A stretch of DNA of 62,721 bases, the filler included, from Collodictyon triciliatum (Eukaryota), in the NCBI GenBank assembly GCA_043381765.1. It is 7 parts of 7 records of this genome, joined end to end, with 100 filler letters (N's around TTAATTAATTAA, not from the genome) between each part and the next. Parts side by side here need not be neighbours in the genome. Positions count along the whole stretch, not along the records: positions 22,048 to 32,948 come from JBHJMP010002533.1; positions 33,049 to 43,840 come from JBHJMP010002535.1; 5 more parts are not named here. One strand, given 5' to 3'. Below the pieces are notes generated by a model. The model worked only from the letters and a program-made list of their open reading frames with translations, ran no database searches and had not been told where the DNA came from. Both the position numbers and the translations under genes were made by a program. This document shows positions 10,936-62,617 of the stretch, in pieces; the first letter of the stretch is position 1, and the number at the start of each line of letters is the position of its first letter.

Positions 10936-11035
10936 NNNNNNNNNNNNNNNNNNNNNNNNNNNNNNNNNNNNNNNNNNNNTTAATTAATTAANNNNNNNNN
11001 NNNNNNNNNNNNNNNNNNNNNNNNNNNNNNNNNNN
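10936..11035. other. Artificial contig linker N-TTAATTAATTAA-N
   Basis: A six-frame-stop 12-mer embedded in Ns. Identical linkers occur at 21948-22047, 32949-33048, 43841-43940, 54838-54937 and 59130-59229. Confidence 0.97.
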
Positions 11036-18402: not shown

Positions 18403-21550
<3,148 letters not shown>

Positions 21551-22047
21551 GTATATGTAACAAGAGAATGAGAAAAAAAAGAAAAGAAAAGGAGTTTTAT
21601 ACAATACGTAATTAAGAAAATAAAAAAAATGTAAGAGATGAACATAATACATGGAAAATAAGGAAAGCAACACTGAGAAATTAAATATATTTTAACTGGA
21701 AGTTGCCGATAACTGCATTTCACTCATAAGATAAATAAAACAATAATACCCGACGAGGAACGAAAACAAAAACAAAACAACACTCCTCTCCGATTGAACA
21801 TCGTGATTCATAAGCTAAAACAGAAACAAAACAAAGAAAAGAACCAATTGATTACTTCCCAGCCAAACGTCTATTCATATATGAAGTTGTATATTCATGC
21901 GCATCGTGTTTCTCTCCGCCATTCATAAACGACAAAATCGCAAACATNNNNNNNNNNNNNNNNNNNNNNNNNNNNNNNNNNNNNNNNNNNNTTAATTAAT
22001 TAANNNNNNNNNNNNNNNNNNNNNNNNNNNNNNNNNNNNNNNNNNNN

Positions 22048-28631: not shown

Positions 28632-29464
28632 TTATGGCACGGGCGGGTTGGCGGATGGGAGCGGCGCCTGCGGGAGGACGAAGAGGTGTGCGAAGCGGCC
28701 TTGGATGACAAAGTGGCACCTGCAAACAAAGCAGACGAGTCAGCACGGTGCTTCGGAGTCACAGGACACGGTTATTTGCGTGCCGGTGGGGCGGTACTTT
28801 CGGTGCGCCGTGGGCAAGTCGCCTGCCAGTCGGGAGACGTCGGCGTTCTGGTACAGGTTTGTGCTGTGGTGGGTGGGAGTCGGCCGAGTCAAGGAAGGGC
28901 GTGGATTCCTGGTAGCTCCGGAGTCATGATTATGTTTGCTCGTTTGTTTGATAAAATGCTGTTCTTTTCGTAGTGTATTTTGATATGCGGGGTTTTGTTT
29001 TGTTTTGTTTTGTTTTGTTTTGTTTTGTTTTGTTTTGTTTTGTTTTGTTTTGTTTTGTTTTGTTTTGTTTTGTTTTGTTTTGTTTTGTTTTGTTTTTGTG
29101 TGTGGAGGGATTTGGTGGTTGCAGAGTGAGGGGTTTCGGTTGTTTGGATACAAAAAGTCGACGATGACTTGGCACATTTCGGTGATTCCGTGGGTCTATT
29201 GAGTGATGGGGTTTTTTTTCCATGTCTTCGTTTAGAGTATTTTGTTTCGTCTCTCGTGTTTTGTGTTTCGTTCGCCGGTCTATTCTTGTTGTATCGCGTG
29301 ATGGATGGCGGATGATGTTATTGGGGGATAAAGTCTTACCGGTTCGATGATTTCAAAGAGCGTCGAAGGCTTTATTTTCTCAAACATGAAGAGAAGCATT
29401 TTCAGAAGCTATCCGCGTGGAAAACACGTCCGTGTGAGTATTCCAAGTAGCATGATTTCAATGA

Positions 29465-29520
<56 letters not shown>

Positions 29521-32500
29521 GAAAAAGAGAAAACTGTAATCGGTGAAAGAAACACGCAAACAAGTCTGCTGCGCTTTGATAATCCAAACCTTGATGGCAG
29601 TATCCTGGTTCTGGTGCAGAAGTTCGGCAATAAATGGAGAGACGAGCCTCACCAACAAATAAATCTGACGGAAGCGAGAAGCAGTTTACAGAAGGAAAGG
29701 AGGTATACGGGAAAAACAAGGATTGATGATGGGAAATGCTTCTCAAGTCTTATTGCAAAGCTTTAACTAGATATAATTTTTGTTGAATCCCACGAAAAAA
29801 AAAATGATGCTAGGTTCAAGTTTCTCGTTGATTATGATTATATAAGAATGATCCGATGAATCACTGATAAAAAAAAATACAAAGAAAACGAATAAATGTT
29901 GTTTGTTTTTTTAGCAGAATCGCTAATAATCAGAATGTGATGCGCATTCCCACCGACACAATGGACACACTCGTCGACGGATTCTTGAGAGCGGCATCGA
30001 GAGTCTCCAATAGGATTGAAGTGTTTGACCTTTGGATCATCGCATGCCCAACGAGAAGCATTTGCCTAGGGATAGATTATCATCCAATTTTAAGAGAGAA
30101 CAAATGACCTGCAGGATGAAGGAAATACACACAAAGAGATAACAACCATTCCATCATATCACGAGGCTTCACATGGGAGACTTTGTGTCGAGAATGAAAC
30201 AAGAGAATCGCGATGGATGAATAACCGTCGGATTAGGTGTGAAAACTCTTCTTACATCGACCGCATTTTGAGCACTCTTTCGTTGAATGTGTCTTTATTG
30301 CAGAATGTGTCATAATGCGACGTATGCTCACCCTAGCCAGTCATTAACGTGAATATACTAATACCAACATGTTAGAAAAGAAAGCACATCAACAAGTGTG
30401 AGTTAAAATATGGCCTTTTGACATTTATTTATCTTTTTATTTTGGGGAATATACATAAAAATGTAACCAAAAATAAAAAAAAAACGTGCGATTGTTTTAA
30501 GGTGTATGATAGCAGTATATGCATTCATTTTACCAAGTGGACTGTCCATTCTGTACGTGTCTCTTCGTCCACAAAACAATCGCCAATGAGCCGACACAGC
30601 GACTGCCGAAATGGAATTGTCAAAGAGGAAAAGAGGCCACCCTAACGCCACGATATAATTAAATGACCAAAACTGCAATCTCAAGCAATAATCCGATGGC
30701 ATTAATTGTTTCAGGATTACAACTTTCAGTATTACAACGGAAAAAATGAAGTGATTATGAGTCGAAGGGTTACTAGTGCGGAAAACATGGCGTATTGGTT
30801 AGCCCCAGCATAGTCTCTTGCGAGTCTCATTAGTTCTTTGATGAGAATATCTGTGCATTTGGCAAGTAAAATTAAATGATAATATTTTTTTTAATAACAT
30901 ATAAAAACACCATAAAATGGGCCTATTGTTTAGCACATTACCTTGTTGATATGGAATCAACAAAATCTCAATTATCATGTTGGATGAGTGGGCATCAAAT
31001 TGGCTGATGAATTCTGAAAAGCAGAACGACAGCCCATCGTGCTTGGGATTATCCAAAAACGGATCTCCCGAAATAAGTGCGACATATACAGTCAAGGAAA
31101 GATCAAGTTTTGGGATAATACAGCAATTTCGGATAATTTTTTCCTTCCTTTCCTTCTTTCCGATTTTTTTTTTAATGATTTGTGTGATATTAAAGTCGCA
31201 AACAAGCAAAAATTCTATTCAGAAGAAATTAGATGGATGAAAGAAAAAAAAAGAAAGAAAAAAGAGTGACTGAAATTTATATGTTAAGATTGAATCATCT
31301 TGGATATTTCTTGGGAACTGAGATATGTAACCCGTAAAATGCGTCACCATATCAGGCGAAGGATATCCTACAAACAGAAAAACGGAAAGAAAAAAAAGAA
31401 GCCAAATCAGTGCTTGAATGAAAGCCCCAAATCAACTTGAATAAGCGGGAAGATAAGAGGTGTTTGTTTAAAAAAAAAATACCATCTTGGCTACCAAGAG
31501 ACAGCGCAGCCCAGGAATATAGCTCATCACGAAGTTCGCTCTGATCTACATATGGAATGAATTTTGTTGCAGTCAGTCATGACAATAACTCTTGTAGATG
31601 GATAGGAATCTGCCAAAATGCCTACTCAGCAACTTGATAAGGTAAATTCGTGTAATTTGGATGGATGTCTCATCTCCGGGAAAGGCCATCAACAGGCTTT
31701 TGACGAAGTTAAAGGGATTATCATGGTATCCTGCAAATATATTTTGGCATTACATGCTTTTTGAGGAAAAATGGGATATCCAAATGTTATTCAAAAAGAG
31801 AAACCTATTTATGTAACAGTACAGAAACAAAGACCATTTGGAAGATGGAAAAAAAAAAACACAAGATAAAAAAAAGAAAGAGATAAATAAAAATAATTGG
31901 TTAACATTAAAAAATAATTAAACGCAGATAAGAAATATGCTTACGATAAAGTTCGCAGAAATTGTCTATGCATTCAACCTAATGTAAATGTTTTTTATTC
32001 TCTCGTTTCATTTCAAAAAAAGTCTTTTCTTTTTCACAGTAGGTGTCATATGGGTATATAATCAAATTGAGTAAGATAGGTTCCTTACAATGTTGTGGGT
32101 ATCTTCAAACATAAACAGCTTCCAGAATATCATATCCAGCACTGGAATCATCCGTAAGCAAACATTACCATAAAACTCAGGCAGACACTCTGAGCTAAAA
32201 TGATTTTATGACACCATCAGAATGGAAAAAAAAAAGTTATATTATTTTTAAATAAATTGCAAAAAAATAAATAAAATAGTAGCCTTTTTTTTTCTAGTGC
32301 AACAGTCCAATATTAAGTTGAAGGTAGTCTACTTGAGATAATTTTCCGAAGAGCGGCAGTTGAAATCAAAGTTACTGGCCAAAGGGGTATTGCTTAACCA
32401 AAACTTTGGGTTCACATTCAAGCTCAAAAACTCTGACAATTTATTGATAAGTGAGTCCTGCACAGTTTTCACTAATTTGAGGCTAAGATAAGATATAAAA

Positions 32501-32816
32501 TATTGAAATATATTACAACCTTGAGTGGCGATATGAAAGTTGGAGCGGGTTGCAATGAGCTGCATCACCAATAGCATTCCAACATCATTTTTGCTTCTTG
32601 ATAAGTTCAAAAAGGCAAGAATGATTGTTTCTGTTGGCATAGAATACTGATAAGCATGCATTTCTTTTTATTCGAATATTTACGAGAGATTATAATAAAT
32701 TTACAAATTTATTTTCTTTTTAATTGTTTTGAAAGGTAAAGATATATTCGTGAATGGAAACAACCTAGTCGCAGAAGGTGGAACTTCCATATCATGGACG
32801 AAAGTGCTGGTAAGAT
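28632..32816 (-). CDS. MED23: Mediator subunit MED23, C-terminal part (about 15 exons; 5' end lost at contig end)
   Basis: Spliced exons give LSSMIWKFHLLRLETIILAF, KLSEFLSLNVNPKFWLSN, LPEFYGNVCLRMIPVLD, LYRYHDNPF, FCFSEF...IIEILLIP, LLVGHAMI, IYLLVRLVSPF, VIVDF. These match the recalled MED23 motifs LPIYFGNVCLRFLPVFD, LYKFHDRP, WRFNEF and ICDFLYH. Stop TAA at 28634-28632. Confidence 0.9.
28873..29151 (-). other. U12-type intron in MED23 (GT donor; 3' end probably AC at 28873, alternatively AG at 28864)
   Basis: Donor GTATCCAA at 29151 and branch point CTTCCTTGAC (A at 28889). Contains a (AAAAC)n tract. Confidence 0.75.
28993..29098. repeat. (TTTTG)n microsatellite inside the MED23 U12 intron
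   Basis: Direct inspection. Confidence 0.95.
31077..31307 (-). other. U12-type AT-AC intron in MED23
   Basis: Donor ATATCCAA at 31307, branch point TTTCCTTGAC (31100-31091), acceptor GCAC ending 31077. Splicing gives in-frame SQFPR-I-ISGDPF; retention hits a stop. Confidence 0.88.
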
Positions 32817-33048
32817 CTAGTCAGGAAAAGTGATGTGTGATATGATAATGGAACTCAGCTATTCAAAAAACAATAAACGCGAAATACTTAAAAAAAAAAA
32901 AGGAAAAGAAAAAAGAATAAAAGAAAAAGGAAAAGGGAAAAAAGGAAANNNNNNNNNNNNNNNNNNNNNNNNNNNNNNNNNNNNNNNNNNNNTTAATTAA
33001 TTAANNNNNNNNNNNNNNNNNNNNNNNNNNNNNNNNNNNNNNNNNNNN

Positions 33049-33163
33049 TGTCTATTGTCTATTGTCTATTGTCTATTGTCTATTGTCTATTGTCTATTGT
33101 CTATTGTCTATTGTCTATTGTCTATTGTCTATTGTCTATTGTCTATTGTCCATTGTCTATTGT
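33049..33163. repeat. (ATTGTCT)n heptamer repeat at contig end
   Basis: Direct inspection. Confidence 0.95.
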
Positions 33164-33278
33164 ACTCCTGTTAGTTTTATAAACATCTATAATTTTATTC
33201 TGGTTTCTATCTCTATTTCTGTTTCTTGCGCAGGAATTCACATATTTTATTATCCTCAACCATCTTTCTTTTTTGCAG

Positions 33279-36200
33279 GTCAAACTGGGTAACCTGAAAA
33301 CGAACAAGGCAACTACACTCTACTCTGCTGATGCTGCGCCCGTGTCTGTATCTCCCAATATCGAGGGAACCGCGGTTGTGGTTGGGCATTTAGATGGTTC
33401 TATAATTAGATTCAATCTGGAAGAAGGTGGAACTGGACCTGCCCAGGTTATTCCTACATATATGCCTTAATCATCGAAATGCCATCCAATTAAGCGTGTT
33501 CAGATTGCACGAATTTCAAATCATACCCGAGTTTATCATACGAGAATTCCATCAAATAATCATTCATTTAGACAGTCCAAAACTAACATGAACCATACTT
33601 GATAGTTCTATACGCACTAAGCGTTATTTGGTTTTATTTTGTTCTACTTGTTCTTTCTATCATTTAATTCATACCGATACTGCATAGACCAAGCTTGTAG
33701 TCCACCAGACTGTTCCTTATGCTTTGTCATGGGGACTAAGTATATGTGCAGCGGGCAACGACCAGGTTGGTCTCTCACATAATCACTTTCGATATTCACC
33801 CATAACTCATTTCTTCAATATCATTACGTATGGACATAGGCCATTTTTTTTTCAGATACATGTCCATAAAATCGATCTATTCAATAATTTCCCATCATCG
33901 CAGTGTGTCGTATTTTATGACAAAGATGGACGGAGGATTCAAGACTTTGATTACAGCAGTGATGAATTTGAAAAAGAGTTTTGTAGTTCTGTATCGAACC
34001 CTACAGGCGATTGCATTCTTGTCGGAAGTTTCAATCGGTACCTTTTCCTTCTTATGTAGCATCAGATTGGTGCTACCTATCAATGAACCATTCATACTCT
34101 TCATATATAATTTTTTTTAATGTTTCTTTATTCAATTTACCATAATTTTATTTAACATGAGTGTAGCGGGGCATTCATAGCGTTTTTTTATTTTATTACC
34201 AAAATTTTATTATTATTATTATTATTATATTACTATACAAGTTTCCAACTAATCATATTGGGTTATTGGAAACGTCTCAATAGATTCCGAATTTTCAAAA
34301 TCAACGCCAAGAAGACTGCATGGGAAGAAGACAGCGCAAAAATCATCGATAATTTCTATACAGTCAGTGCTATGTCTTGGAGACCAGACGGGTCTCGTGT
34401 CTGTGTTGGGTCTCTCTGCGGGGCTGTAGAAATGTATGACGCATGCATCCGTCGCTATCAGTACAAGGGAACATTCGAGTTTACGTACATCAGCTCAAGT
34501 CAAGTGGTTGTGAAGCGCTTGTCCTCTGGTATCCGCTCATTCATTCATGCCTGACTTACAATCGAACTACAAAATATCGCCTTTTTTACTTACTATTTTT
34601 CTGCTTTTCTGCTTCTGCTACAATAACGACATATGGCACGCCTTCAATATTACTTTGATCTATTTTGTCTATTGACCCTCACTGACTTTGATTCATCCCT
34701 TTTTCTTTTTCAGGTGCTGGAATCATACTGAAATCCTACTTCGGATTCGAAATCGCAAAGACAAATGTATTTCAGGACCGCTTTATCGTCGGACACACTC
34801 CCGAGTCCCTTCTGGTTGGCGATATGGAGACAGCCAAGCTGAGCGAGGTTCGAAACTAGGAAACGATATTAAAAAGGAATTGATATATCACATTTACCAA
34901 TTTTCTAAAAATATAGTGCTTCCCTCACTAGAACAAAGCAATATCAAATATCAAATATCAAATATCAAATATCAAATATCAAATATCAAATATCAAATAT
35001 CAAATATCAAATATCAAATATCAAATATCAAATATCAAATATCAAATATCAAATATCAAATATCAAATATCAAATATCAAATATCAAATATCAAANNNNN
35101 NNNNNNNNNNNNNNNNNNNNNNNNNNNNNNNNNNNNNNNNNNNNNNNNNNNNNNNNNNNNNNNNNNNNNNNNNNNNNNNNNNNNNNNNNNNNNNNNNNNN
35201 NNNNNNNNNNNNNNNNNNNNNNNNNNNNNNNNNNNNNNNNNNNNNNNNNNNNNNNNNNNNNNNNNNNNNNNNNNNNNNNNNNNNNNNNNNNNNNNNNNNN
35301 NNNNNNNNAAATAACAAATAACAAATAACAAATAACAAATAACAAATAACAAATAACAAATAACAAATAACAAATAACAAATAACAAATAACAAATAACA
35401 AATAACAAATATGCGTCCAATCGAGTAGGTCACGTGGAGATCAGGAGGGAAGGAAAAGTTCGACTTCAATTACCCTAATGTGTGTCTTGTATATAACGAC
35501 GGAGAATTGTCCATCATTGAGTATGGAAAGAACGAGATTCTTTCCTCATGCCGAACTGAGTACATGAGTTCCCATCTCATCAGCGTTCGCATCAATGAAG
35601 TTAAAGGAGTGACAGACAACAAAAAAATTGCCTACCTCATCGATTTGCAGACAATATGCATATTTGATCTGTTCAACTCTGTTACATTGGCAACAATAGA
35701 CCATGATTCCAAAGTGGATTGGTTAGAGGTACCACAGTTTTTTTTTCTAATGAGCGGTTCCCGATTTTATCGATCTTATAGTCATGTGTAAATGAAATAA
35801 TTTGAGAAAAAAGTGTATTATTTTCCGCTTTGTCAACACCCAATTACCATCCAGCCAGATAATTCTCTTTGAATCGAATGAAGGAAAAAAATCTAGCCAG
35901 TTAATTCTATGCTCTTTTCCAGCTGAATACTAGCGGAAGCATCTTACTCTTTCGAGATAAGCGCAGACAACTCCATCTGTACGATTTGGTGAAGAGAACT
36001 CGAATGTCGCTTCTCAACTACTGCACATATGTCCAGTGGGTTCCTGAGTCGGATGTCGTCGTTGCTCAAAATCGCACGACACTCTCAGTGTGGTATTCCA
36101 TAAACAATCCCGAAAACATCACCACATTCCCCATCAAAGGAGATGTTCAAGACATTCAGAAAATTGAAGGTCGAACAATTGTTGTTGTTGACGAAGGTAT

Positions 36201-39200
36201 ATTGTCTTGGAATTTACCTGAATTCTTTTGTTTACTTTTTTAAATGTGAAAAGATATGTAATTATTTTTTTTAAAAAGAACTTTAATACTCTGAAAGTTG
36301 TGAAATTTTTTTTATTTAATTTATGTATGAAATGAATCACCTCATGTATATATTCTAAACTGGTCTTCTCACTCTCATTTGCAGGGGTACAAACGGTACA
36401 CATAGGGCTGGACGAAACCCTGATTCAATTCGGCTCTGCGTTAGAAATACACGATTATGAAAAGTGCAAACTTCATTCAAGATAATTCATACGAATCCAT
36501 ACTACATATATCTAGGCTTACTCGTTCCCCTTTCTCTACTATGCATATACCCTGTTAATAGGCTTTCTACGCATCTAATCCGATCTTCCCTTTCCTCTTT
36601 CTTTTTCTTCTCTTTCACTCAAAAAAATATCAGAGCTGTCGATATTCTGGAAAAGCTTCCACTAACCCCTGAAACAGAAGCCATGTGGCAAAATTTGTAC
36701 AAAGTTTCAGTTGATAATTCTAAACTCATCATCGCTGAAAGGTAGTTTAGTTTGTAAAATCAACTCGTTTTTTGCTTTCTTTTTATAGGCATGATTATGA
36801 AAATCTCGACCAGTCAATACATATTCTTGTTCAACTCATATATATTTTCCTTGGCCAAACAAGATGCTCTGCTGCCCTTGGTAACGTTTGCCGCACTCGC
36901 TTCTTGCACAAAGTCAATAAAATCGCAGCAGGCCATGCAGAGGAACTTGGGACTGATGGGACAAACTACTTTCGAGTTCGTGCTCGCATGGAGATGCTCA
37001 ATAAGCAACTCCGAGCAGCTGAGATTCTTCTCCTGGACCATGTAATAAGTTCCACATTGTTAAATTTGGTGGATGTGTATTTTTGCATCTAATATTCAAG
37101 TTGTATGAATGAATGGTTATGTTCTGAGACCGCCCTTTGATTTCAATTTCAATTTCTATTTCAATATCCAGTAAGAGCTGTAATTTTTTTTTAATATCCA
37201 TGCCGCAGTTCGTCAAATGCCAATTATTCACTTATATCTGCATACTTCTGTTCATTTTGTTATTACAGAATTCTGTGGACGAAGTAATCGATATGTATGT
37301 GGAGCTACATCGATGGGACGAAGCCATCGCAATCGCAGAGAAGTTCAACCACCCCGAAGTTGAAAACATGCGCCGCTCATACTTCGACTGGTTGTTAAAT
37401 AGCCACCAAAAGGACAAAGCAGGTTTATACTCGCTTTATCAACAATTGAAGAGCACCATACTTGTAATCACAAAAATCATAATGGGGAAGCATACATCCT
37501 TGTAAATAGCATCGCACACCAAATTCCCTCTTAACCATTCCATTGAATTCGTTCAATATCATACACAGGAATGTTGCGAGAACGAGACGGCCAGTACGTA
37601 GAAGCAGCCAAACTTTACTTGGAATGTAACATGCCCGCAAAGGCTGCCAATCTAGTCAACAAGGTTTGATGCTAATTAACTTATATTCATTTGATGGGTT
37701 AACCCCAAGAATGCGTCAACGAAACATTCTTGGCGAAGCAGATCAACAACCATCCCAATCCTGCGCATTCTTTCATTTGTCTATGTGTACTAAACAACTA
37801 CAATCCTTTTTGAAAATCCAGCACGGTCTCAACTATCACACCGACCTTGTTCAAAAAATATCCGAAAGCCTTGTTCGGGCGGGGATGTATGAAAAGGTTT
37901 TTATTTTATTTTATTTTATTTTATTTATTTATTCTCATGAGTGGTTCCACACAAAATAAAATAAAAGTGAAATGTCAAACAAAATGAGGAGACCATTATT
38001 CATCATTAAAAGGCAGACACGCTCAGATATTCTGTCTCGCATATATATATATTAATTCATAATTTTAATTTACCACTAGGCGGGAGACTTTTTTGAAAAT
38101 ATCCTTGGCTCACCTGACAAAGCCATGGAAATGTACAAGAAGGGACGCGTTTATCGCCGCGCTGTCGAGCTTGCGCGCCAGAATTCTCCTGGTGATGTGA
38201 TTAGACTAGAGGAAGTAAATACTCGCTTATGAAATTGAGTGTGGCATTAACGATATATAAATATATATTATCTATCAATCCATTATAATACTTAAACATA
38301 CAATCAAATATTCACTCGCTTCTCACAATTTCACTTTTTTTTTTTCAAAAGGAATGGGGCGACTGGCTTGTTTCCCAAAAGCAAATGGACGCTGCTATCA
38401 ACCACTTCATCGAAGCCAACCAATACATCAAGGCCATCGAAGCTGCAATCAAGGCTGAACAATGGTCGAAGGCTGTCAAACTGATAGAAACTCAGAACGG
38501 GTCGGCAGCGAAAGGATATTATCAGGTAATCAGAATCCCAATGCATTGGTGCTTTCAGTATGTGTTTAGTTCCACATATACTGTGATTGATGACTCAATG
38601 CACAACACATATACATCACTCTCCTCTCATTCTTGCAGAAAGTTGCACATCATTATGCCAACACGAAAAATTACGACTTGGCCGAGAGATACTACATACA
38701 GGTAGTCTTCATATATATATAATAAAGCAATAATTAAAAAGGAAAAAAAAACAATCAGTGAAAAATGGAAAAAATAAAATGAAAAAAAAAAAAAACGAAT
38801 ACTTGAGAGAGCTTATACTTTGCCTCAAGTGTAATACTTGCTGTTTCTCACCAACATACTGCGATACTCTATAGGCCGGATTGCATGTTGACGCAGTTGA
38901 GATGTACGCAAAGGCCAATAAATGGGAGGCAGCCCACAGAGTCGCCACAACGTCTGCTGTTTGAATGAACACATATCTAATCGGAATGAACACTGTTTAC
39001 CTCTAGTTCTAAGGTATACTCATCTCGTCTTGAACCGCATAGTTACATGAAAGATGAAGAAGTTCTCGCACTTTACAAGACCCAAGCAAGCAAACTCGAA
39101 GAGCAAGGAAAATACAAGGATGCAGAAAAGCTTCTTATCATGATTGGAAAACCGGACCAGGCCATCCAGGTTAGAAAAATGTTTGATAGATGCACATTCT

Positions 39201-42200
39201 ATTGGTATGAATATATGCATTATGCATGGTTTGATTCGTTAATGCATACAGCCCCTTTCCCCATATAATTATTGAGTCAAAGAACACCTAATTATATTGA
39301 TTGCTTACAGATGTACAAGAGGAACCGACATTTCGATGATATGATTCGTTTAGTCTCTCAATACCATAAAGACTACTTGTCACAAACACACGCCAGTCTC
39401 GCGGACCAATTCGAAGCTGAGGGCAATCTGAAGAAGGCCGAGCACCATCGAATTGAGGTACCATTATATTCCTTTTAAATATTATTCTAGTTCCAAAAGC
39501 GCAGTGATATATTTTGGGTTTCCTTCTACCTGACTTGATGACATGCATATTTTCTTTGTCATGATTAAAGTAATTCAAATGTGATATTAGATGAAAGAAA
39601 TAAATGAAAAAAAACATAAAAAGAATAAATAAGATGATGTTAATATCATAGGCCAATGACTGGGGCACTGCTGTTCAAATGTACAGAGAACGTGACATGT
39701 GGGATGATGCGATGCGTGTGGCTAAGTTGCATGGAGGAGAAAATGCATCAAAACAAGTTGCGTACACATGGGCAGTTTCCCTTGGTGGCGAGGCTGGATT
39801 ACAACTCCTTACGAAATTCGGGCTTGAGGAGCAGGTTAATACGCTTTTTCCTATTACCCCCCCCCAAACGCTTGATGCATTATTTTTTAAAGTATCATCA
39901 GTTTGATATGATTTTACCTTCGCGATGTGAAGCATACGCACTTGTTCCTATCATTTTTTTTTATTTTTAAAATTTAATATTTAATGTCCTCTCCTAAATG
40001 TTTCTGCAGGCTATTGACTACGCCGTGGAGCACCTGGACTTCGCTTACGCGCTAGAAACAGCTCGCAATACAATGAAGAGCAAGCTTCCTGACGTCCATC
40101 TCAAGTATGCGATGTTCCTAGAAGATGAAGGCCGCTTCAGAGAGGTTATACTCTGCTATATGTCTATTTTCCTCTCTTCTATACCTCAATTATATTAGTT
40201 TTCCTTCCCATTTCCTCATTCCGAATGCGCAGCCATGAAAGGTATGAGTCCTTTGTCATAATAGGACAAAAGCTCGGTAGATATTCATTTCGTGACAATA
40301 ACTCACCATCATATGACTTTGAATATCATAGGCTGAGGAGGAATTTATTCTAGCATCCAAGCCGCATGAGGCTATCGATATGTATATTCACACTCAAGAT
40401 TGGGTCAACGCCGAGCGTGTTGCTAATTCCTACGAGCCAGAAGCCATCAACGATATTATGGTGGCTAAAGCAAAGTAATATACATTATACTCTCTTATGC
40501 ATTCTTTGAATCGAATAAAGGAAAAAAAAACTCTCTTATGCATTCTTCTGTATTGTCTAACAAAAAATTCGAACCATATGCACACACCGAATCAAAAACA
40601 AATTCCAGAGCTGCTCTCGAAAGAAATGACTACACCTCTGCCGAGGGTTTGTTCCTCCGTGCAAAGAAGCCCGAGCTTGCTGTCAAGTCTTACAAGGTGA
40701 ACAATCCCTGAGCATTTGAAAATACACACATTCTTTTCTATAATTTTTCCTTTTGCACCATCTTTGAACTCTTGCGCAAATCTACGCGTATTATGCGTGT
40801 AGAGTCAGTTATTGACGTTCAGATCAAGCTAGATGCAAGAACCACGCGGTATAAATGCCTTTTTATTTCAAATATAGGAAAAAGGAATGTGGGCAGATGC
40901 CATTAGAATCACAAAAGAATACCTTCCCACCAAAGCAAGCTTTCTGATTTTATAGATCTGATGAACACTTTGCATTTTTTTTGATATGAAACTTTCATCC
41001 CAATATCACACGGTTTCCTCTCGAACGACATTGCAATATTTACACCATGTAACAGGTCCGAGAAATCAATGCCGAATACGCAGCATTTCTACAAAGCAAT
41101 ACTCAATCAGGGAAGGTCGATCTCATCGCGCAAGGGAAGCTACTCGAAGAGTCGAAAGAATATCCTTCATCTTCATTACTATGCGTCATCGCTTCACACA
41201 TTGATTCATTTAATTTTTTTTGAAATACAACAAGTTCTTTGGAGCAATATATTTCTATATGATATTCAATAGTGTTTCCATATTGCGTGGCATTATCCTT
41301 CACCAAAACATACATATTCTCGTGCCATCGAAGCCTATTTACGTGTCGGCAGGGGAGATGCTTCAGTAAACACGACCATATATATGCTCATTTTTCTTTG
41401 ATATACACATATTCTTTTTCAAATGTAATATCATCCTACATAATTATACTCATGCATACTTTACAATTCAGAGCACAGAGCAACTGCAGGAAGTTTGGCT
41501 TTCTGCTTTCCGGTTGGCCAATACACACATTCCTGCGAGGTCACTGGAAGTGGCAAACACAGTCACCGGTCACCTAATCGATATCCAGCGTTTTGATCTG
41601 GCTGGGCACGTCTGGGAGAGCGTAGAGAAATACAGGAACGCTGTGGATGTCTACATGCAGGTCAGCCATTCTTCAAACTCTACTATTAAATGGAGTCTTT
41701 CGAGCCTTGTGTTATGTCTTTTTTTCTTTTCTTGTGCAATGTGATACTTTATCTATTTATTTATTTAACATTTGAATTCATGAAGGAATCTATCTCATTC
41801 TTGTACCCGTACTCTATTCATTTTATGCGGTGTCTCTCAAGTATACTCTGTATGTATTGAAATTGACAGGGAGGTATATGGGATAAAGCACGGTCTATCG
41901 CCGCTACAAAAGTGCCGGATTATTCACCTGAAGTGGAGCGCGCCTTTGTCAATCACCTGAAGCAAAGTGACCAGCCCAAGAAGTTGGTGGAGCTCGGAAA
42001 CACAGCGGCTGGCCTGGAGGCTTATGCTGCAAAAGGAGAATGGGATAAGTGCCTGTCACTCGCTGAGAAGCAGGTCCCCATCATCGCCCAATTAACAATG
42101 TTTCATCAACCTGGTCCATTCACTCCCTGCATATGAAATTTACCAGGAATTTGATTTGGCTGACAATGGCCAACATCTTCCTCTCTGAAACTTACCCACT

Positions 42201-43726
42201 TTTTGCCCGTCTTCATTTCTCACATATTTCTTTGATACGGAATGCTGCGTATCGTTTTCACAAGCTATGCGCGACAATATAGGGCCCACAAGTTGTCATC
42301 AAGTTCTCGACAATGTATGCAACTCAGCTGCTCAATTCAGGCAAGTATGTGGAGGCTGTCAAAGTATTTGGCAAGTATGGGACACCCACAGACCCTTCCA
42401 ACTTTGTCATTTACAAGAATCTTTCTTCTGCCGTGATATCTCACGCTCGAGATGGAGACCATTCCAATGGGCTTGTTGAACTGCGCACAGTTTATCGAGA
42501 CTTGGTAACATAGAACAAACACCACTTCTCTGATAGATGAGAATCAAATGAAAATCAAATGAAAAACAAATGGAAAAACAAATGAAAAAACAAATGAAAA
42601 AACAAATGATAAAACAAATGATAAAACAAATGATAAAACAAATGATAAAACAAATGATAAAACAAATGATAAAACAAATGATAAAACAAATGAAAAACAA
42701 ATAAAAAACAAATAAAAAACAAATACAAAACAAATACAAAACAAATGAAAAACAAATGAAAGAAAAATAAAAACTATGGAGAAAAGCTGAACCTTTGGTA
42801 ATACACTAAAATTGTTGCGCTATTCGTAGATGACATTTTTACAAGGGAAATCAGAGCCTCGGAAGGCAGAGATGGAGAAGATGGAGCTCATTTCTCACCT
42901 TGCTCTCCTGCGCTCCTCAATCGTCGATGTTTGTATATCTTTAGCCAAAATCGATGAGAATCTTTTTCTGATATCTTTCCTTCAATTCTCATCCTGGCCA
43001 TCCAATTCACTGGTCCTCTATCCACCACATTCACTCCTGTAGAAGGGACTTCCAGATATATGGGGCAAAATCAATGTCTCGCTAGTTCGTTATTGCAAGG
43101 ACCTGCCAGCGGACAAAGTATTCTACGACGCGGGAATGGCTTGCAAGGTAGTTTGATTTCCGCTAAATACACTTGACCTTGGTGCAAATATCATGATTTT
43201 GTGGGTATACCAGCGAAGACACAGTGAGAAGTAGCACAGCTGAAGCCTTTTCTTTTTCTTTTTCAATCAATATAATATAACATAACCGTATGTAGACTCA
43301 AAAGTGGTTGAGCATGGCTTTCGTCTTTTTGAATCGATTCCTGGATTTGAGTGAACTGATGGACGAAGGGGACTCTATGACTCTGGAGAATGCTGACTTC
43401 CAAAACACGGACATCCCTTACGACTTTGCCATCCCCGAAAAGCACGCTATTTCTGAGGAGAAGAGAGAAGAGGTTACAATCCCCTACATTTGACATATAA
43501 TTCTATGAGGGTACTCTCACTCGTTTTTATGCATATAAAAAATGCTGTGTTTTCACCAACGCCGGCTCTCCAAAGGTACGCAACTGGATTCTTGCGGTGT
43601 CGATGGACCAGCAAATCGACCAGGAGCTCAGTCGCAAGCCATGCGATGGTTGCAGCACAAGTATTTACGAAGCTTCCTTATCCTGCTACAAATGCAAGCA
43701 TAATTACACACCTTGCATAATTACAG
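33279..43726 (+). CDS. IFT172: Intraflagellar transport protein 172 (partial at both ends, over 30 exons)
   Basis: VKLGNLKTNK, GHLDGSI, PYALSWG, GSLCGAVEMYDAC, RTEYMSSHLISVRINE, DHDSKVDWLELN, LLFRDKRRQLHL, YVQWVPESDVVVAQNR, DAAINHFIEA, VHLKYAMFLEDEGRF, AFVFLNRFLDL, TDIPY, WILAVSMD, and the C-terminal zinc-ribbon start. Confidence 0.97.
34941..35410. repeat. (ATATCAA)n and (AAATAAC)n heptamer repeats flanking a gap, intronic
   Basis: Direct inspection. Confidence 0.9.
40489..40547 (+). mobile_element. Ultra-short retroposon insertion (family A) with 18-bp TSD in an IFT172 intron
   Basis: ACTCTCTTATGCATTCTT at 40489-40506 and 40530-40547 flanks TGAATCGAATAAAGG(A)n, identical to the tail of the insert at 287-327. 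Confidence 0.8.
40935..41055 (+). other. GC-AG intron in IFT172
   Basis: EYLPTK ends AAA|GCAAGC. No GT occurs before the in-frame TAG. Acceptor AACAG|GTC resumes VREINAEY. Confidence 0.8.
41160..41313 (+). other. U12-type AT-AC intron in IFT172
   Basis: Donor ATATCCTT (41160), branch point TCCTTCAC (41296-41303), acceptor ATAC (41313). Splicing restores LEESKEYSRAIEAYLRV, the IFT172 E..GEYSRA...YL motif. Confidence 0.93.
42560..42760. repeat. (AAAACAAATGAT)n 12-mer minisatellite, intronic
   Basis: Direct inspection. Confidence 0.9.
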
Positions 43727-43992
43727 GTTTGTGATATCTTTGAAAACAAAAAACAAAAAACAAAAAACAAAAAACAAAAAACAAAAAACAAAAAACAAAA
43801 AACAAAAAACAAAAAACAAAAAACAAAAAACAAAAAACAANNNNNNNNNNNNNNNNNNNNNNNNNNNNNNNNNNNNNNNNNNNNTTAATTAATTAANNNN
43901 NNNNNNNNNNNNNNNNNNNNNNNNNNNNNNNNNNNNNNNNTTTTTCTCTCTCTTTTTTTTCTCTCTCTTTTTTTTCTCTCTCTTTTTTTTCT

Positions 43993-52751: not shown

Positions 52752-54108
52752 TTATTGTTTGCCAGACTTGCGTCCCTTCAACTTGCGCTGGTAGAAGGCA
52801 AGCTCGTCGCCCTCGAGGATGTATCCGTCGCAGCGACCGCACTGGCCAGGGCGGGAGGAAACGCGGGCGAGAACGCGGCCGGTGGCAAACTGCTCCTCAA
52901 CAGCGGGGTCGACCGAGTGGTTCTTGCGGCGCTCAAGATGCTTGGAATGGACGGACTTGCTGACCTTCTTGACCTCGGAGCGGTCGACACCGTCGTTGGC
53001 GGCAGCCGGGGTGGCCGGGGTAGCAGGAGCAGCGGCAGCGGCAGCAGGGGCGGCAGGAGCAGCGGTGGTGGTGGCGGCGGCGGCGGTGGCAGAGCGCTTC
53101 TTCTTGCCGAGGGCGAGGCCGTAGTACTTCTCGTACCACTGGCGGAAGGGAGTGGCGTCGATGACAACAATGGCACCCTTGACCAGCGTCTTTGTGCGGA
53201 CAAGCTCGTTGTTGGAGGCGTTGTAGACCACGTCCAGGATACGGGTCTTGCGTGTGCAAACCTCGGCTCCCCACGAGAAGTTGCCTTGGTCCAGGCGCAG
53301 GGCGCGGCGCTTAATGTGGCCTCCGCGGACGCGCACGTGGTGGACGCGGCGCTCGCCCAGCTTGGTCATGGCGGGTTGACGGCCCAGCTCATACTTGCGC
53401 TTCTTGCGGATGGCAATCAGCTTGCCTCCGGTGGCACGGCGCTTGTGTGTGGAGTCACGAGAGATACCTGAGCGGCAGTTAGGCCTGTGTTAGTCGTGAC
53501 TGTGTACATGAAGGTGATGAGACTGTGGCGATCCTGTGTTGAGAGGTTGGGGTGAGTGAAGGGGTGTTCGAGGAAAGATTCGGCGTGAGGTCGTTGGAGG
53601 TGATCTGCGAACGGGCACTGTAGATTCACGAGTTCAAGTGGTGGTATTCTGAAATAAATTCCCCTGATCTAATCTGATCAAGTCAAGAGATTTTGCTTTC
53701 TGAACACAAAGAGAAATTAGGTGGCTATTTGCTCGGCGAGGAATTGTAGCTGTCCGAAATTAGGGCTAATTGAGCACGATAGAATGTATCGACGCCAGAG
53801 CGATAGTTCAGGTCGATCACAGCCCGTGGCAACAAGGCAAAGGTTCTTCCTGACTGACGATACGGATAAATGAGATAACGGCAATTCTGTAGGGATTCTG
53901 CGGCATTATTGGGTTGGGTTTTGCGTATGCTCTGCTGAAAAAACATTTTCCAGTTACAGTTGTGCATTAACCACTGACGTCAGTGTTGCAGACAGCCTGT
54001 TTCGTACTGTGCGTGGCTGTTCCCGCTGGGTCCTGAACGTGAGTAGTGGAGCAAGTTGGGGGAAGAGCGCGGGTGGGTGCTCTGGTGGTATCGATAGCGC
54101 TTACCCAT
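52752..54108 (-). CDS. RPS8: 40S ribosomal protein S8 (eS8); exon 1 = ATGG (54108-54105), intron 54104-53468
   Basis: [17 protein letters not shown]...[54 protein letters not shown]. Confidence 0.98.
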
Positions 54109-54937
54109 TCTGTGGTGCTGTGAAGACTTCGGATTGTATCCGGTGGTTGGTGGAACCTAGTGTAAAAACTGCAAGAAAGCGTGGTGCCTGCAGCAATCCC
54201 TCGAAGTGAAGTTGACTGTGAAAGAGGATTTTTGATATTAGGCCACCGGAACCCCCAACCAAAGGACAGAAAAAAAGATTGAGGGAAAAATTGAAGGAAA
54301 CTTACCAAATTTGGATACAGTTCACGGAAGAAAACATATTTCGTACCGTATGCACAGTTCAATACATATAGGTAGGTATTTTCATCACTAATATTCAGTA
54401 TTATAATTGCATAGATTAGAACTACAAATTTGTTAAACCATATCAATACTGATAGATATTATTACATTTGTATATTGTCATATTATATTTTCCAGAAATA
54501 TAAAATGGGAGCTCAGGAACGCAGTCAATCCCAAACTTAACTCCAACCGCACAGACAAAACTTTAAACAAATATGGATGATAATTCACCACATAAAGTAA
54601 ATTATCCAAGAAAAATCGAAGGTTCAATCAGGCTGCGTCACCACACATCGCAAGTAAATCTGATCCGACACAAAGCAGCCGAATGCCGATCAAAACTCGC
54701 ATCGCACTGCGCGCACAAGAAACACTCAAGTTAAGGGCGAGCGCCACGAAAGGCTTGGAGGAAGCTCAGACAAAACATGGACCCCACGAAATAAAAAAAG
54801 AGAGAAAAAAAAGAGAGAAAAAAAAGAGAGAAAAAAANNNNNNNNNNNNNNNNNNNNNNNNNNNNNNNNNNNNNNNNNNNNTTAATTAATTAANNNNNNN
54901 NNNNNNNNNNNNNNNNNNNNNNNNNNNNNNNNNNNNN

Positions 54938-58994: not shown

Positions 58995-60060
58995 GTAAGC
59001 ACACATATAAAGATGAATAAATAACAGAAAAGTATCCCAAAACACAAAAAAAAAAAAAAAAAAAAAAAAAAAACAGAGGCGCACAGCAAAAAGGCCACGG
59101 GTGCCCCACGCCATGCCCCACCCTCCCACNNNNNNNNNNNNNNNNNNNNNNNNNNNNNNNNNNNNNNNNNNNNTTAATTAATTAANNNNNNNNNNNNNNN
59201 NNNNNNNNNNNNNNNNNNNNNNNNNNNNNTGGTTTTTTTGGTTGTTTTTTTGGTTTTTTTTTGGTTTTTTTGGTTTTTTTGTTTTTTTGTTTTTTTTGGT
59301 TTTTTTGGTTTTTTTGGTTTTTTTGGTTTTTTTTGGTNNNNNNNNNNNNNNNNNNNNNNNNNNNNNNNNNNNNNNNNNNNNNNNNNNNNNNNNNNNNNNN
59401 NNNNNNNNNNNNNNNNNNNNNNNNNNNNNNNNNNNNNNNNNNNNNNNNNNNNNNNNNNNNNNNNNNNNNNNNNNNNNNNNNNNNNNNNNNNNNNNNNNNN
59501 NNNNNNNNNNNNNNNNNNNNNNNNNNNNNNNNNNNNNNNNNNNNNNNNNNNNNNNNNNNNNNNNNNNNNNNNNNNNNNNNNNNNNNNNNNNNNNNNNNNN
59601 NNNNNNNNNNNNNNNNNNNNNNNNNNNNNNNNNNNNNNNNNNNNNNNNNNNNNNNNNNNNNNNNNNNNNNNNNNNNNNNNNNNNNNNNNNNNNNNNNNNN
59701 NNNNNNNNNNNNNNNNNNNNNNNNNNNNNNNNNNNNNNNNNNNNNNNNNNNNNNNNNNNNNNNNNNNNNNNNNNNNNNNNNNNNNNNNNNNNNNNNNNNN
59801 NNNNNNNNNNNNNNNNNNNNNNNNNNNNNNNNNNNNNNNNNNNNNNNNNNNNNNNNNNNNNNNNNNNNNNNNNNNNNNNNNNNNNNNNNNNNNNNNNNNN
59901 NNNNNNNNNNNNNNNNNNNNNNNNNNNNNNNNNNNNNNNNNNNNNNNNNNNNNNNNNNNNNNNNNNNNNNNNNNNNNNNNNNNNNNNNNNNNNNNNNNNN
60001 NNNNNNNNNNNNNNNNNNNNNNNNNNNNNNNNNNNNNNGACACCAGAGTCATTATTAATC

Positions 60061-62617
60061 TCATGATGTGGCCATCTTCATTAATTCCATGGCCGTATGG
60101 GCGCAGTCCATTCCTTTCTCCTTTGATGCATCGAGTAGTGTCCTGATTCCTCTTTTGTCCAACTGTGATGCAAATCCATCAAAGTCTTTAAGGCTCCATA
60201 ATAAAAGGATAGTAGGATTAATTACATCTTTAACTGGGACTCTAGATGCGACAATAATAATGTTTTTGAGAGTATTGAGATCAACCAAGCCGGCAAGGAC
60301 TTCTTGTGATGGGTCATCTCTTTGTGAGGAACTCAAATTAGGTGTTGACTCTATTCTGCTCTTCAGAACACCCGCCAGTTCCAGTACAAAATAGATGAAC
60401 TCCGATATTTTTCTTTGGACACGTATGTCATGTATATTCGATAGAGTACCACATGGGCTCGATGGTGACCAATCATGGTCTGTATCACGCAAAAGACTGT
60501 AAGAAATCCCAGAAAGCCTGTAGATGAGAGATTCGCGTGTGCCTATAGAGTAAATAACAAAAGTCTTCGACCCAAGAAACAACCTCATTATTGCCCATGC
60601 TGTGTGGGATAACGCCGAGTTAACACAGCCCAAGTAAACTTCTACAGACTTTACGGTTTGGTGATGTTTTTCCATTACTGTCTCTGCATCAGAAAATTCC
60701 ACAGCACAGTATATACCTTTCAGCGCAAGATGCACGGTTGTCGAGTCCGAGCCAAATCGGACTATATTTTCTAAGGCATGCAATAACCGAGGATGTGATA
60801 GAACGAGTCCTTTTATTGCCCCTAAAAGTCGAACCAGAATAGAGAGTGAATAGTAGCTTAATATTGGTGTGGTGGTAAAGTGCAAGTTTTTTTCAGTGAA
60901 AACAAATTGCGCCCCATATTCAATGATATCAAGTAAAGTCTCAATGAAACTTATATTGTGGCATAATGATTGTGAAAACATATCAACATCAAGTTTTGAA
61001 AGCACGCCTCCCTCGAAAAGAATCTCAATTGTTCTGTTGATTAATCCCAGGGATATAACCGCCATAGGGGTTTTTTTTGCATAAAAAGTCAGTTCATTGA
61101 AAACCTCTTCTAATTGCAAAAGATTTCGAATTGATTCGATGTAACCATGATGCCTTTGGTCGTCGATTATTGCGAGGAGATTGCTTTCTTGTAATAAATT
61201 GTTGGTGTTGTTGGTGGCTACTTTGAGGTTTTCTTTATCGATTAAATCCCAGCTTTCTGTTTCTTGCTCTGAGAAGGTCGTTTTTATCAGTCCATATATA
61301 ATTCCACGATTATCAAAACTATTGACTAATGTTCGCAATATCATGGACTCTACATGTATCCCATAGTCTAAAGCGTGTATAAAGGCACCGGCCGAGTATA
61401 TAATCGACGCCAGGCCATTCCCCTCAGCAAGATGTGCCTTTCCTAGATTTGCCATTGATTCAGCATGAAAGGGTTGAATAACTAGCACATTTTGGAAGAA
61501 CTCAATAGCCGTTTTTCTTTCACCAAGCGTATTCTCACATAAACCAACCAGGCAAAGTGCATCTACAAAAATACCAGATTGCTTTGTGGATACTCGAAAA
61601 CACTCCGCCGAAGTATGGAGCAGAATTTTTCGAGCTTCTGGATGAAGCACTGCCATTTCGGGGTCAGAGTCAAGGCAGGGGTCGGTATCAGAGTCAGGCA
61701 ATGCAAAACATATTGTGGACGTGCCTCTGTCGTATATTTCATGTGGAATCAAACTTGGGAGAGCCTGAAATCCTTTGATGTCGTTCATCGATAACATTTT
61801 ATTTCCTACTTTACAACCGTCACTAAGGATAATTCCCAGGTCGTCGATTAAATCTTTCAATAGCAATTCTTTGTTTATGAAAGACATTAAATCATTTTGG
61901 TCGATGAACTTCTTTTCTGGATTTATCTCAAATTTTTTTGCTACTGAATTCATCCACAACTCTGGTGCGTTACTATCATATATATGCTTGTTGAGAAAGG
62001 TGATTATATTCTTGGATAAAGTAATAAAAGCTGCAGGAGATGCCTTTCTGAGCGCCTCCCTAGCATTTTGCTTCAACGCCCTACGCACCATTTGGTAGAC
62101 AATTTCTCCTAAATACTTTCCTCTATTCGTTTCATCTGTATTGGCAATTACATCTTGGGTAAGAATACCCAGAAACCTCAAATTAATACCCCGAAAGTGC
62201 ATTAATTGGCATATTGAGATGTTGGTTGTGTTTTTGAGTAGTAGTACAAGATAGGGTATTTCAATCTGAATCAGATGCTGCATGGCAATTATTGATAGGG
62301 AATCGTGGCTGGCAGATTCTACTTCTTTGCCTCTCAATCGTTTGCTCGATGGAAGTGAGATTGGATATCTTTTAGTAAACTCTGGTCTGAATTGGAGGCT
62401 GAAATTATGCTCCTTATGTAGATTTTGCCGGTCGCCAATCTGGTATATAGTCATTAGTTACATAGAAGGTTTGCAATCCCCGAGGGGAGGGTGTCTGAAC
62501 ACGCTTTTAACACAAAGCATCAAATAAGAAAAGGAATGAATACTAACATTCAGAATCTGAGGTTGTCTTGGCATTAAAGAGTAAAGGCCAACGGTGTAGT
62601 ACTTTCCATCACGACAT
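60061..62617 (-). CDS. Clu-domain protein with TPR and ARM/HEAT-like helical C-terminus (5' partial; exons 62617-62548 and 62439-60061)
   Basis: RDGKYYTVGLYSLMP, LQFRPEF, QLMHFRGINLRFLG and QMVRRALKQ are Clu-type motifs. TPR-like ALCLVGLC...AIEFFQNVLVIQPFHAESMANLG. Confidence 0.75.

Follow-up and report, generated by a model that had tools for sequence, protein, structure and literature searches.

Three candidate U12-type introns in a MED23-like gene and IFT172 of Collodictyon triciliatum

The window analysed here is a stretch of 62,721 bases from the intron-dense freshwater flagellate Collodictyon triciliatum (GenBank assembly GCA_043381765.1), in which seven stretches from separate contigs (about 10.9 kb and smaller) are set in a chain, rather than a single locus. 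The stretches are separated by linkers of the form N44-TTAATTAATTAA-N44 at 10936-11035, 21948-22047, 32949-33048, 43841-43940, 54838-54937 and 59130-59229, and genes are cut at these joints, with a MED23-like gene broken off at 32948 and IFT172 at 33049. These two genes contain three introns, designated C1, C2 (both in the MED23-like gene) and C3 (in IFT172), that carry the signals of the minor, or U12-type, class and are the subject of this analysis (Table 1). A first-pass annotation of the window had proposed three U12-type introns at these positions, and all three were upheld: C1 by complementary DNA (cDNA), C3 by homology and C2, as a probable intron, by reading frame.

Table 1. Positions of the introns, splice signals and genes discussed in the text, numbered along the whole window (nt, nucleotides; aa, amino acids).
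Feature	Position	Strand	Description	Basis or remark
MED23-like gene, 3' part	28740..32818	-	485 aa and a stop, in 16 exons separated by 15 introns	5' end truncated by contig end at 32948
C1, U12-type GT-AG intron	28864..29151	-	288 nt, phase 2, MED23-like gene	cDNA junction and frame
C1 donor	29144..29151	-	GTATCCAA	RTATCC core, AA not TT at +7/+8
C1 branch site	28888..28896	-	TTCCTTGAC	9/9 to canonical consensus; 25 nt between branch A and 3' splice site
C2, putative U12-type AT-AC intron	31077..31307	-	231 nt, phase 1, MED23-like gene	open frame only
C2 donor	31300..31307	-	ATATCCAA	RTATCC core, AA at +7/+8
C2 branch site	31091..31099	-	TTCCTTGAC	9/9, branch A 15 nt from terminal AC
Canonical donor string	31359-31366	-	ATATCCTT	in the 60-nt exon preceding C2, after its first base
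IFT172 gene	33234..43734	+		5' end truncated by contig start at 33049
C3, U12-type AT-AC intron	41160..41313	+	154 nt, phase 2, IFT172	protein homology
C3 donor	41160..41167	+	ATATCCTT	canonical, 8/8
C3 branch site	41295..41303	+	ATCCTTCAC	7/9, branch A 11 nt from terminal AC
Intron of aminotransferase-like gene	21159-21231	+	73 nt; starts GTATCTTAGC, ends TTCCTTGATAG	
RPS8	52755-54113	-		about 53% GC against about 35% in surroundings
Unbroken open reading frame	60064-62457	-	798 aa	CLU/eIF3_p135 domain, E 3.7e-8

The model of the MED23-like gene was assembled from six cDNA joints together with GT-AG sites picked by frame, and seven of its 15 introns, C1 among them, are seen in cDNA. Run X2 is cDNA: five of the gene's GT-AG introns are missing from its contigs, and one of its loose ends resembles a template-switch adaptor. 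Contigs of run X1 matched only 32535-32818 and a 31-base repeat, while runs X3 and X4 contained no contig on the tested stretch of the gene. One X1 contig extends 49 bases past 32818, the outer edge of the exon 32818-32765. This extension does not occur in the window, so the MED23 exon that comes next upstream lies past the contig end.

The name of the gene derives mainly from the exon at 32089-32187, which matched the Pfam Med23 family (PF11573) with an E value of 8.3e-5 and 21 bits (cut-off 25) over profile positions 949-971 of 1304. The same exon is identical to residues 952-973 of human MED23 at 14 of 22 positions (E 0.1; LPEFYGNVCLRMIPVLDMIFWK against LPIYFGNVCLRFLPVFDIVIHR), and the remaining length to the stop codon agrees with a protein of 1368 residues. 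Five other exons had no MED23 match in PDB, a word-index search with the gene yielded no candidate and the ESM Atlas gave no usable match. With fair confidence, the gene that hosts C1 and C2 can be regarded as MED23-like. Two further features of its model were observed. A predicted 44-nt GT-AG intron at 31546-31589 on the minus strand (GTTATT...TGTAG) is the only solution found that keeps the frame, and it is much shorter than the other introns of the gene, which measure 91-289 nt. In addition, an X2 contig at 29636-29938 (minus strand) runs unspliced through part of the intron 29953-29665 and carries an adaptor-like tail, while another contig splices that intron out, which points to intron retention or precursor messenger RNA.

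The removal of C1 was observed directly. On the minus strand, an exon ending in ...CGACTTTTT is followed by the intron GTATCCAAAC...CCCTTCCTTGACTCGGCCGACTCCCACCCACCACAG and then by the exon CACAAACC. A 257-base X2 contig (record 8, depth 15.6) matches 29152-29195, 29340-29408 and 29590-29665. Before 29152 it carries a further 68 overhanging bases, and the 30 of these that were compared map uniquely in the window, to 28834-28863. The contig thus joins 29152 to 28863 and represents an RNA without exactly 28864-29151, with no possibility of sliding the junction. C1 is therefore real and is excised as a GT-AG intron, on the evidence of one cDNA contig from one run. The reading frame stays open across the junction, and an (AAAAC)n repeat at 28992-29096 fills one third of the intron.

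C3 was placed by protein homology. The exon ...TCGAAAGA is followed by the intron ATATCCTTCA...TTATCCTTCACCAAAACATAC and the exon ATATTCTCG, and joining of exons 41056-41159 and 41314-41362 gives the peptide ...GKLLEESKEYSRAIEAYLRVGRGDA, in which LLEESKE and YSRAIEAYLRV meet at the junction. When this peptide was compared by blastp with a set of 16 IFT172 proteins, each of more than 1400 aa, 14 orthologues aligned without gaps near the junction at collinear positions of about 1230-1325 (for example, KMLEQQKEYAKAVDMYLKI), whereas the orthologues P0004 and P0019 gave no alignment across it. By eye, no nearby GT-AG pair was found that preserves the junction peptide. A metagenome scan with the exon adjoining C3 returned 299 pattern matches, none of them from a relative. 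Run X2 contains the IFT172 contig as well as the MED23-like contig. Two freshwater metatranscriptomes share few of the sampled words of the IFT172 stretch and provided no contigs on the MED23-like stretch.

For C2, the minus strand reads exon ...CCAAGAA, intron ATATCCAAGA...TCTTTCCTTGACTGTATATGTCGCAC and exon TTATTTCGG, and its removal leaves one 485-aa frame open over the 16 exons of the gene. Judged from its frame and signals, C2 is probably a real AT-AC minor intron. With respect to the termini, the first-pass annotation had suggested that all three introns may end in AC. This holds for C3 and, as modelled, for C2, which are AT-AC, but not for C1, which the cDNA junction shows to end unambiguously in AG; the termini of all three are canonical.

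The consensus sequences of U12-type introns are given as [G/A]TATCCTT for the donor and TTCCTT[G/A]AC for the branch site, the latter no more than about 45 nt from the 3' end (Larue, Elias and Roy, Physarum preprint). The C3 donor matches the former at 8/8 positions and those of C1 and C2 at 6/8, with the RTATCC core intact. In all three introns the branch site is of the TCCTT type and lies at a distance of 11-25 nt from the 3' end, inside this limit. The sequence TTCCTTGAC is found twice in the window when both strands are considered (0.58 expected), and both copies are the branch sites of C1 and C2. It had been put forward as a lineage-specific mark, a proposal that falls away as the sequence is simply the canonical U12 branch consensus. 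Further, C1 and C3 are in phase 2 and C2 in phase 1, and the lack of phase 0 agrees with the phase bias known for minor introns, as far as the sources consulted describe it. In the MED23-like gene, all 13 U2-type donors begin with something other than GTATCC.

The motifs by themselves occur at the level of chance. RTATCCTT is present four times in the window (4.25 expected) and RTATCCAA ten times (5.69 expected), and relaxed pairing of donors with branch sites found 16 donors compared with 15.2 in 100 shuffles; it is only the coincidence of the motifs with real splice junctions that carries meaning. No further U12-type candidate survived the window-wide scans. Among the strings rejected, GTATCCAAAT at 54318 (minus strand) lies upstream of the RPS8 start, and the first intron of RPS8 is GTAAGC...CAG; ATATCCGACT at 2429 (plus strand) is within a coding exon of a leucine-rich repeat (LRR) gene, and ATATCCTT at 38099 (plus strand) is within a coding exon of IFT172. 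An introner or transposon origin of C1-C3 was likewise discarded, as the three introns share nothing past the motifs and hence give no sign of it.

The first-pass annotation had also linked three introns that start with GTATC, at 21159, 34529 and 46205, to the U12 class as possible converted introns, but none of them reads as a U12-type intron as it stands. The intron at 21159 has an 8/9 U12 branch motif directly against its AG, but the acceptor is fixed by the protein reading, so that the branch-like A lies 3 nt from the AG, too close to work. At 34529, the donor GTATCCGCTC is accompanied by CTCACTGAC, and the CAG is preceded by a long pyrimidine tract, which makes a 3' end of the U2 type. 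The intron at 46205, GTATCGTTTT, is not U12-like.

Minor introns of mammals provide a direct comparison for the donors of C1 and C2, both of which are of the RTATCCAA form that had been noted earlier in two of the three introns, in a single gene. In supplementary file 1 of PMC6717393, which covers mouse and human, the string TATCC is present 1329 times, TATCCTT 1039 times, TATCCA 65 times and TATCCAA 13 times. The last group includes PGM2L1, the donor of which is CAG/GTATCCAAG in both species (PMC6717393). The presence of this variant in mammals shows that an ordinary minor spliceosome uses such donors, although it accounts for about 1% there (13/1329) and for two of the three introns here.

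A second point of comparison is the host gene. Mouse and human MED23 each contain one AT-AC minor intron in supplementary files 1 and 8 of PMC6717393, the human intron (chr6:131593172-131594098) having the donor ATA/ATATCCTTT, and Med23 is named among the genes with a phase-1 minor intron in a 2026 paper (PMC12956336). C2 resembles this intron in being AT-AC, in phase 1 and in a MED23(-like) gene, and may therefore be ancestral; by type and phase, it may be the same ancient intron as that of mammalian MED23. The two differ in their donors (ATATCCTTT in mammals and ATATCCAAG here), and one minor intron is listed for the mammalian gene compared with two in the MED23-like gene. IFT172 does not appear in this mammalian table (Minor Intron Database; PMC6717393).

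In light of this evidence, C1, C2 and C3 are quite likely to be ordinary minor-spliceosome introns that stand among at least 43 U2-type introns in the MED23-like gene and IFT172. According to the established mechanism, U11 and U12, joined in a di-snRNP (small nuclear ribonucleoprotein), would pair with the RTATCC donor and the TTCCTTRAC branch site, respectively, U6atac would then take the place of U11, and the short distance from the branch site to the 3' end would set the AC or AG acceptor. The AA at +7/+8 of C1 and C2 would remove two U-A pairs with U11 and U6atac, a loss apparently tolerated by about 1% of mammalian minor introns.

Several observations weigh against this reading. No cDNA contig of runs X1-X4 lies over 30614-31800, which includes C2, and the exon flanking C2 had no match in PDB. 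A GT-AG alternative for C2 (donor GTTACA, acceptor GGGAG) is also in frame, though with a poor acceptor, and the canonical donor string ATATCCTT at 31366 sits 59 nt upstream of the in-frame C2 donor ATATCCAAG. With regard to the host gene, seven other exons compared with Pfam had no Med23 match (one match in eight), the MED23 identity derives from one 33-aa exon, and a HMMER search with an 84-aa exon against 1.84 billion representatives returned 0 matches. The C1 branch site is farther from its acceptor than those of C2 and C3, and the 3' end of C1 is C-rich. An Rfam scan of the 62.7-kb window detected one transfer RNA only and no minor small nuclear RNA (snRNA) gene, so that dependence on the minor spliceosome is read from the motifs. 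Finally, two AA donors out of three would have a probability of 3e-4 at the mammalian rate of about 1%, a figure for a pattern that was noticed after the fact, with both cases in one gene and a canonical C3; since this proportion and that of three minor introns among about 110 (see below) are both improbable at mammalian rates, an ordinary density is not demonstrated either.

Some of these points would fit the alternative that one or more of the three introns are not substrates of the minor spliceosome, with C1 being of the U2 type, its GTATCC donor merely odd and its branch-like motif due to chance, and C2 being spliced as a GT-AG intron or through the upstream ATATCCTT. C1 ends in AG after a C-rich stretch, with its branch motif 25 nt away, the 34529 intron has a GTATCC donor together with a clear U2-type pyrimidine tract, and relaxed motif pairs are at chance level in the window. 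Against this, the 9/9 branch consensus, expected 0.58 times in the whole window, is located in the last 40 nt of both RTATCC-starting introns that carry it. By established 5' splice-site rules, pairing with U1 is poor for a GTATCC donor preceded by TTT at -3..-1, which also counts against such a reading. C2 lies outside cDNA coverage, but its GT-AG alternative has a GAG acceptor, and use of ATATCCTT at 31366 on the minus strand with the same acceptor shifts the frame into a stop codon. This string may have arisen by chance, may act as a decoy or may bind U11 as a regulatory site. Overall, we find it very improbable that any of the three introns falls outside the minor class.

The remainder of the window contains genes for a Clp/HslU-like AAA ATPase (the HslU name was assigned from its motifs), an NHL-repeat protein, an HMG-box protein, LRR proteins and RPS8, along with a CLU/eIF3_p135-like open reading frame. 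The start codon of RPS8 is on a tiny first exon (ATGG), and the intron after it (GTAAGC...CTCAG) measures about 640 nt. The CLU/eIF3_p135 reading frame is apparently intron-free amid contigs that are otherwise very intron-dense. The G+C (guanine plus cytosine) content of the window is about 36%, with GC-rich islands, and (AAAAC)n, (CTTT)n and other long microsatellites are spread window-wide over introns and intergenic sequence, for example at 28992-29096, 29453-29534 and 34950-35095 and at many other positions. The best match of RPS8 among the 120 matches listed is a transcript of Diphylleia rotans (73% identity), followed by one at 65%. The collodictyonid D. rotans is the nearest relative found, and the host is probably a collodictyonid-like (CRuMs) flagellate, as judged for the RPS8-bearing contig only.

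The first-pass annotation had further inferred an elevated density of minor introns with a lineage-specific consensus. In the MED23-like part 15 introns were counted, and about 31 in IFT172 by a rough homology-weighted dynamic-programming model in which some introns are unsplit and some micro-exons spurious; this gives at least 46 introns, or about 3-3.7 per kb of gene, and makes a number of about 110 for the whole window plausible by extrapolation. Minor-intron densities of 0.276% in human, 0.272% in Rhizophagus and 0.554% in Basidiobolus, the richest fungus cited, are given in PMC10639083. At these densities, the probability of three or more minor introns among 110 is 0.004-0.024 and the Clopper-Pearson 95% interval is 0.57-7.8%, values calculated without correction for a window that was picked because the three cases showed in it. 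At the level of genes (two of about 15), the probability is 0.10-0.34, which is unremarkable. The proportion of three in about 110 is therefore nominally high, but is a lead and not a result.

These numbers are the starting point for a second alternative, namely that the lineage is rich in U12-type introns (at least 1% of introns) and has a relaxed or shifted RTATCCAA donor, possibly accompanied by corresponding changes in U11 and U6atac. Besides the nominal excess, which disappears at the gene level, it would account for the frequency of AA donors compared with mouse and human and for two minor introns in the MED23-like gene as against one in mammals; yet both AA cases come from one gene, which is itself a known minor-intron gene in mammals, and the canonical donor of C3, ATATCCTT, would clash with a wholesale shift of U11 and U6atac. 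That IFT172 is missing from the mammalian list also speaks for it, while the window-wide scans produced no more candidates. It would also be compatible with the literature search, in which none of the 20 top-ranked papers linked Diphylleia, Collodictyon or CRuMs to minor splicing and none was found that paired Diphylleia rotans with U12, the species tables of the pan-eukaryotic survey not being covered. As the branch sites are canonical, the U12 side is unchanged. A U12-rich lineage of this kind is in our view unlikely, and three cases cannot show either such richness or an altered signal. The proposed lineage-specific consensus is mostly unsupported, given the canonical branch sites and the canonical C3 donor.

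The probable ordinary character of C1-C3 is also apparent from comparison with known systems. They share with U12-type introns of the canonical kind, known from animals, plants, certain fungi and certain protists, the RTATCC core, a branch site near the 3' end, the termini and the absence of phase 0, as well as the pattern of one or two such introns per gene amid many U2-type introns, and differ from them in the two AA donors and in the 25-nt distance of the C1 branch site from its acceptor. In Physarum polycephalum, also a protist, it was likewise inspection by eye that first drew attention to minor introns, through AT-AC termini and RTATC donors. However, in Physarum the classic branch motif has been lost (TTTGA, with a co-varying U12 snRNA), many termini are non-canonical and more than 20,000 such introns are present. 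Transformed signals of this kind were tested for in C1-C3 and were absent; branch sites are classic, termini are canonical and the sole departures are at +7/+8 in two donors. As far as the present evidence goes, C1-C3 are minor introns of the ordinary sort, and neither an unusual density nor a changed consensus has been shown.

Minor introns are rare and have been lost repeatedly, and deep-branching lineages that keep them help to reconstruct the intron content of early eukaryotes. In this context, the window is evidence that this poorly sampled lineage retains minor splicing, in both subtypes and in a form that looks to be working. If C2 matches the mammalian MED23 intron, it would be a very old intron. 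A bolder proposal is that a collodictyonid-like (CRuMs) flagellate lineage has retained or acquired minor introns to a level of 1-3% of all introns, and tolerates or prefers A at +7/+8 along with a classic branch site. We hold this to be decidedly doubtful, but if true, the density would be several times any reported outside Amoebozoa and would represent a second, independent and less transformed enrichment beside that of Physarum. Should the density and the AA donors hold genome-wide, the lineage would offer a natural test of how far the pairing of U11 and U6atac at +7/+8 can be relaxed.

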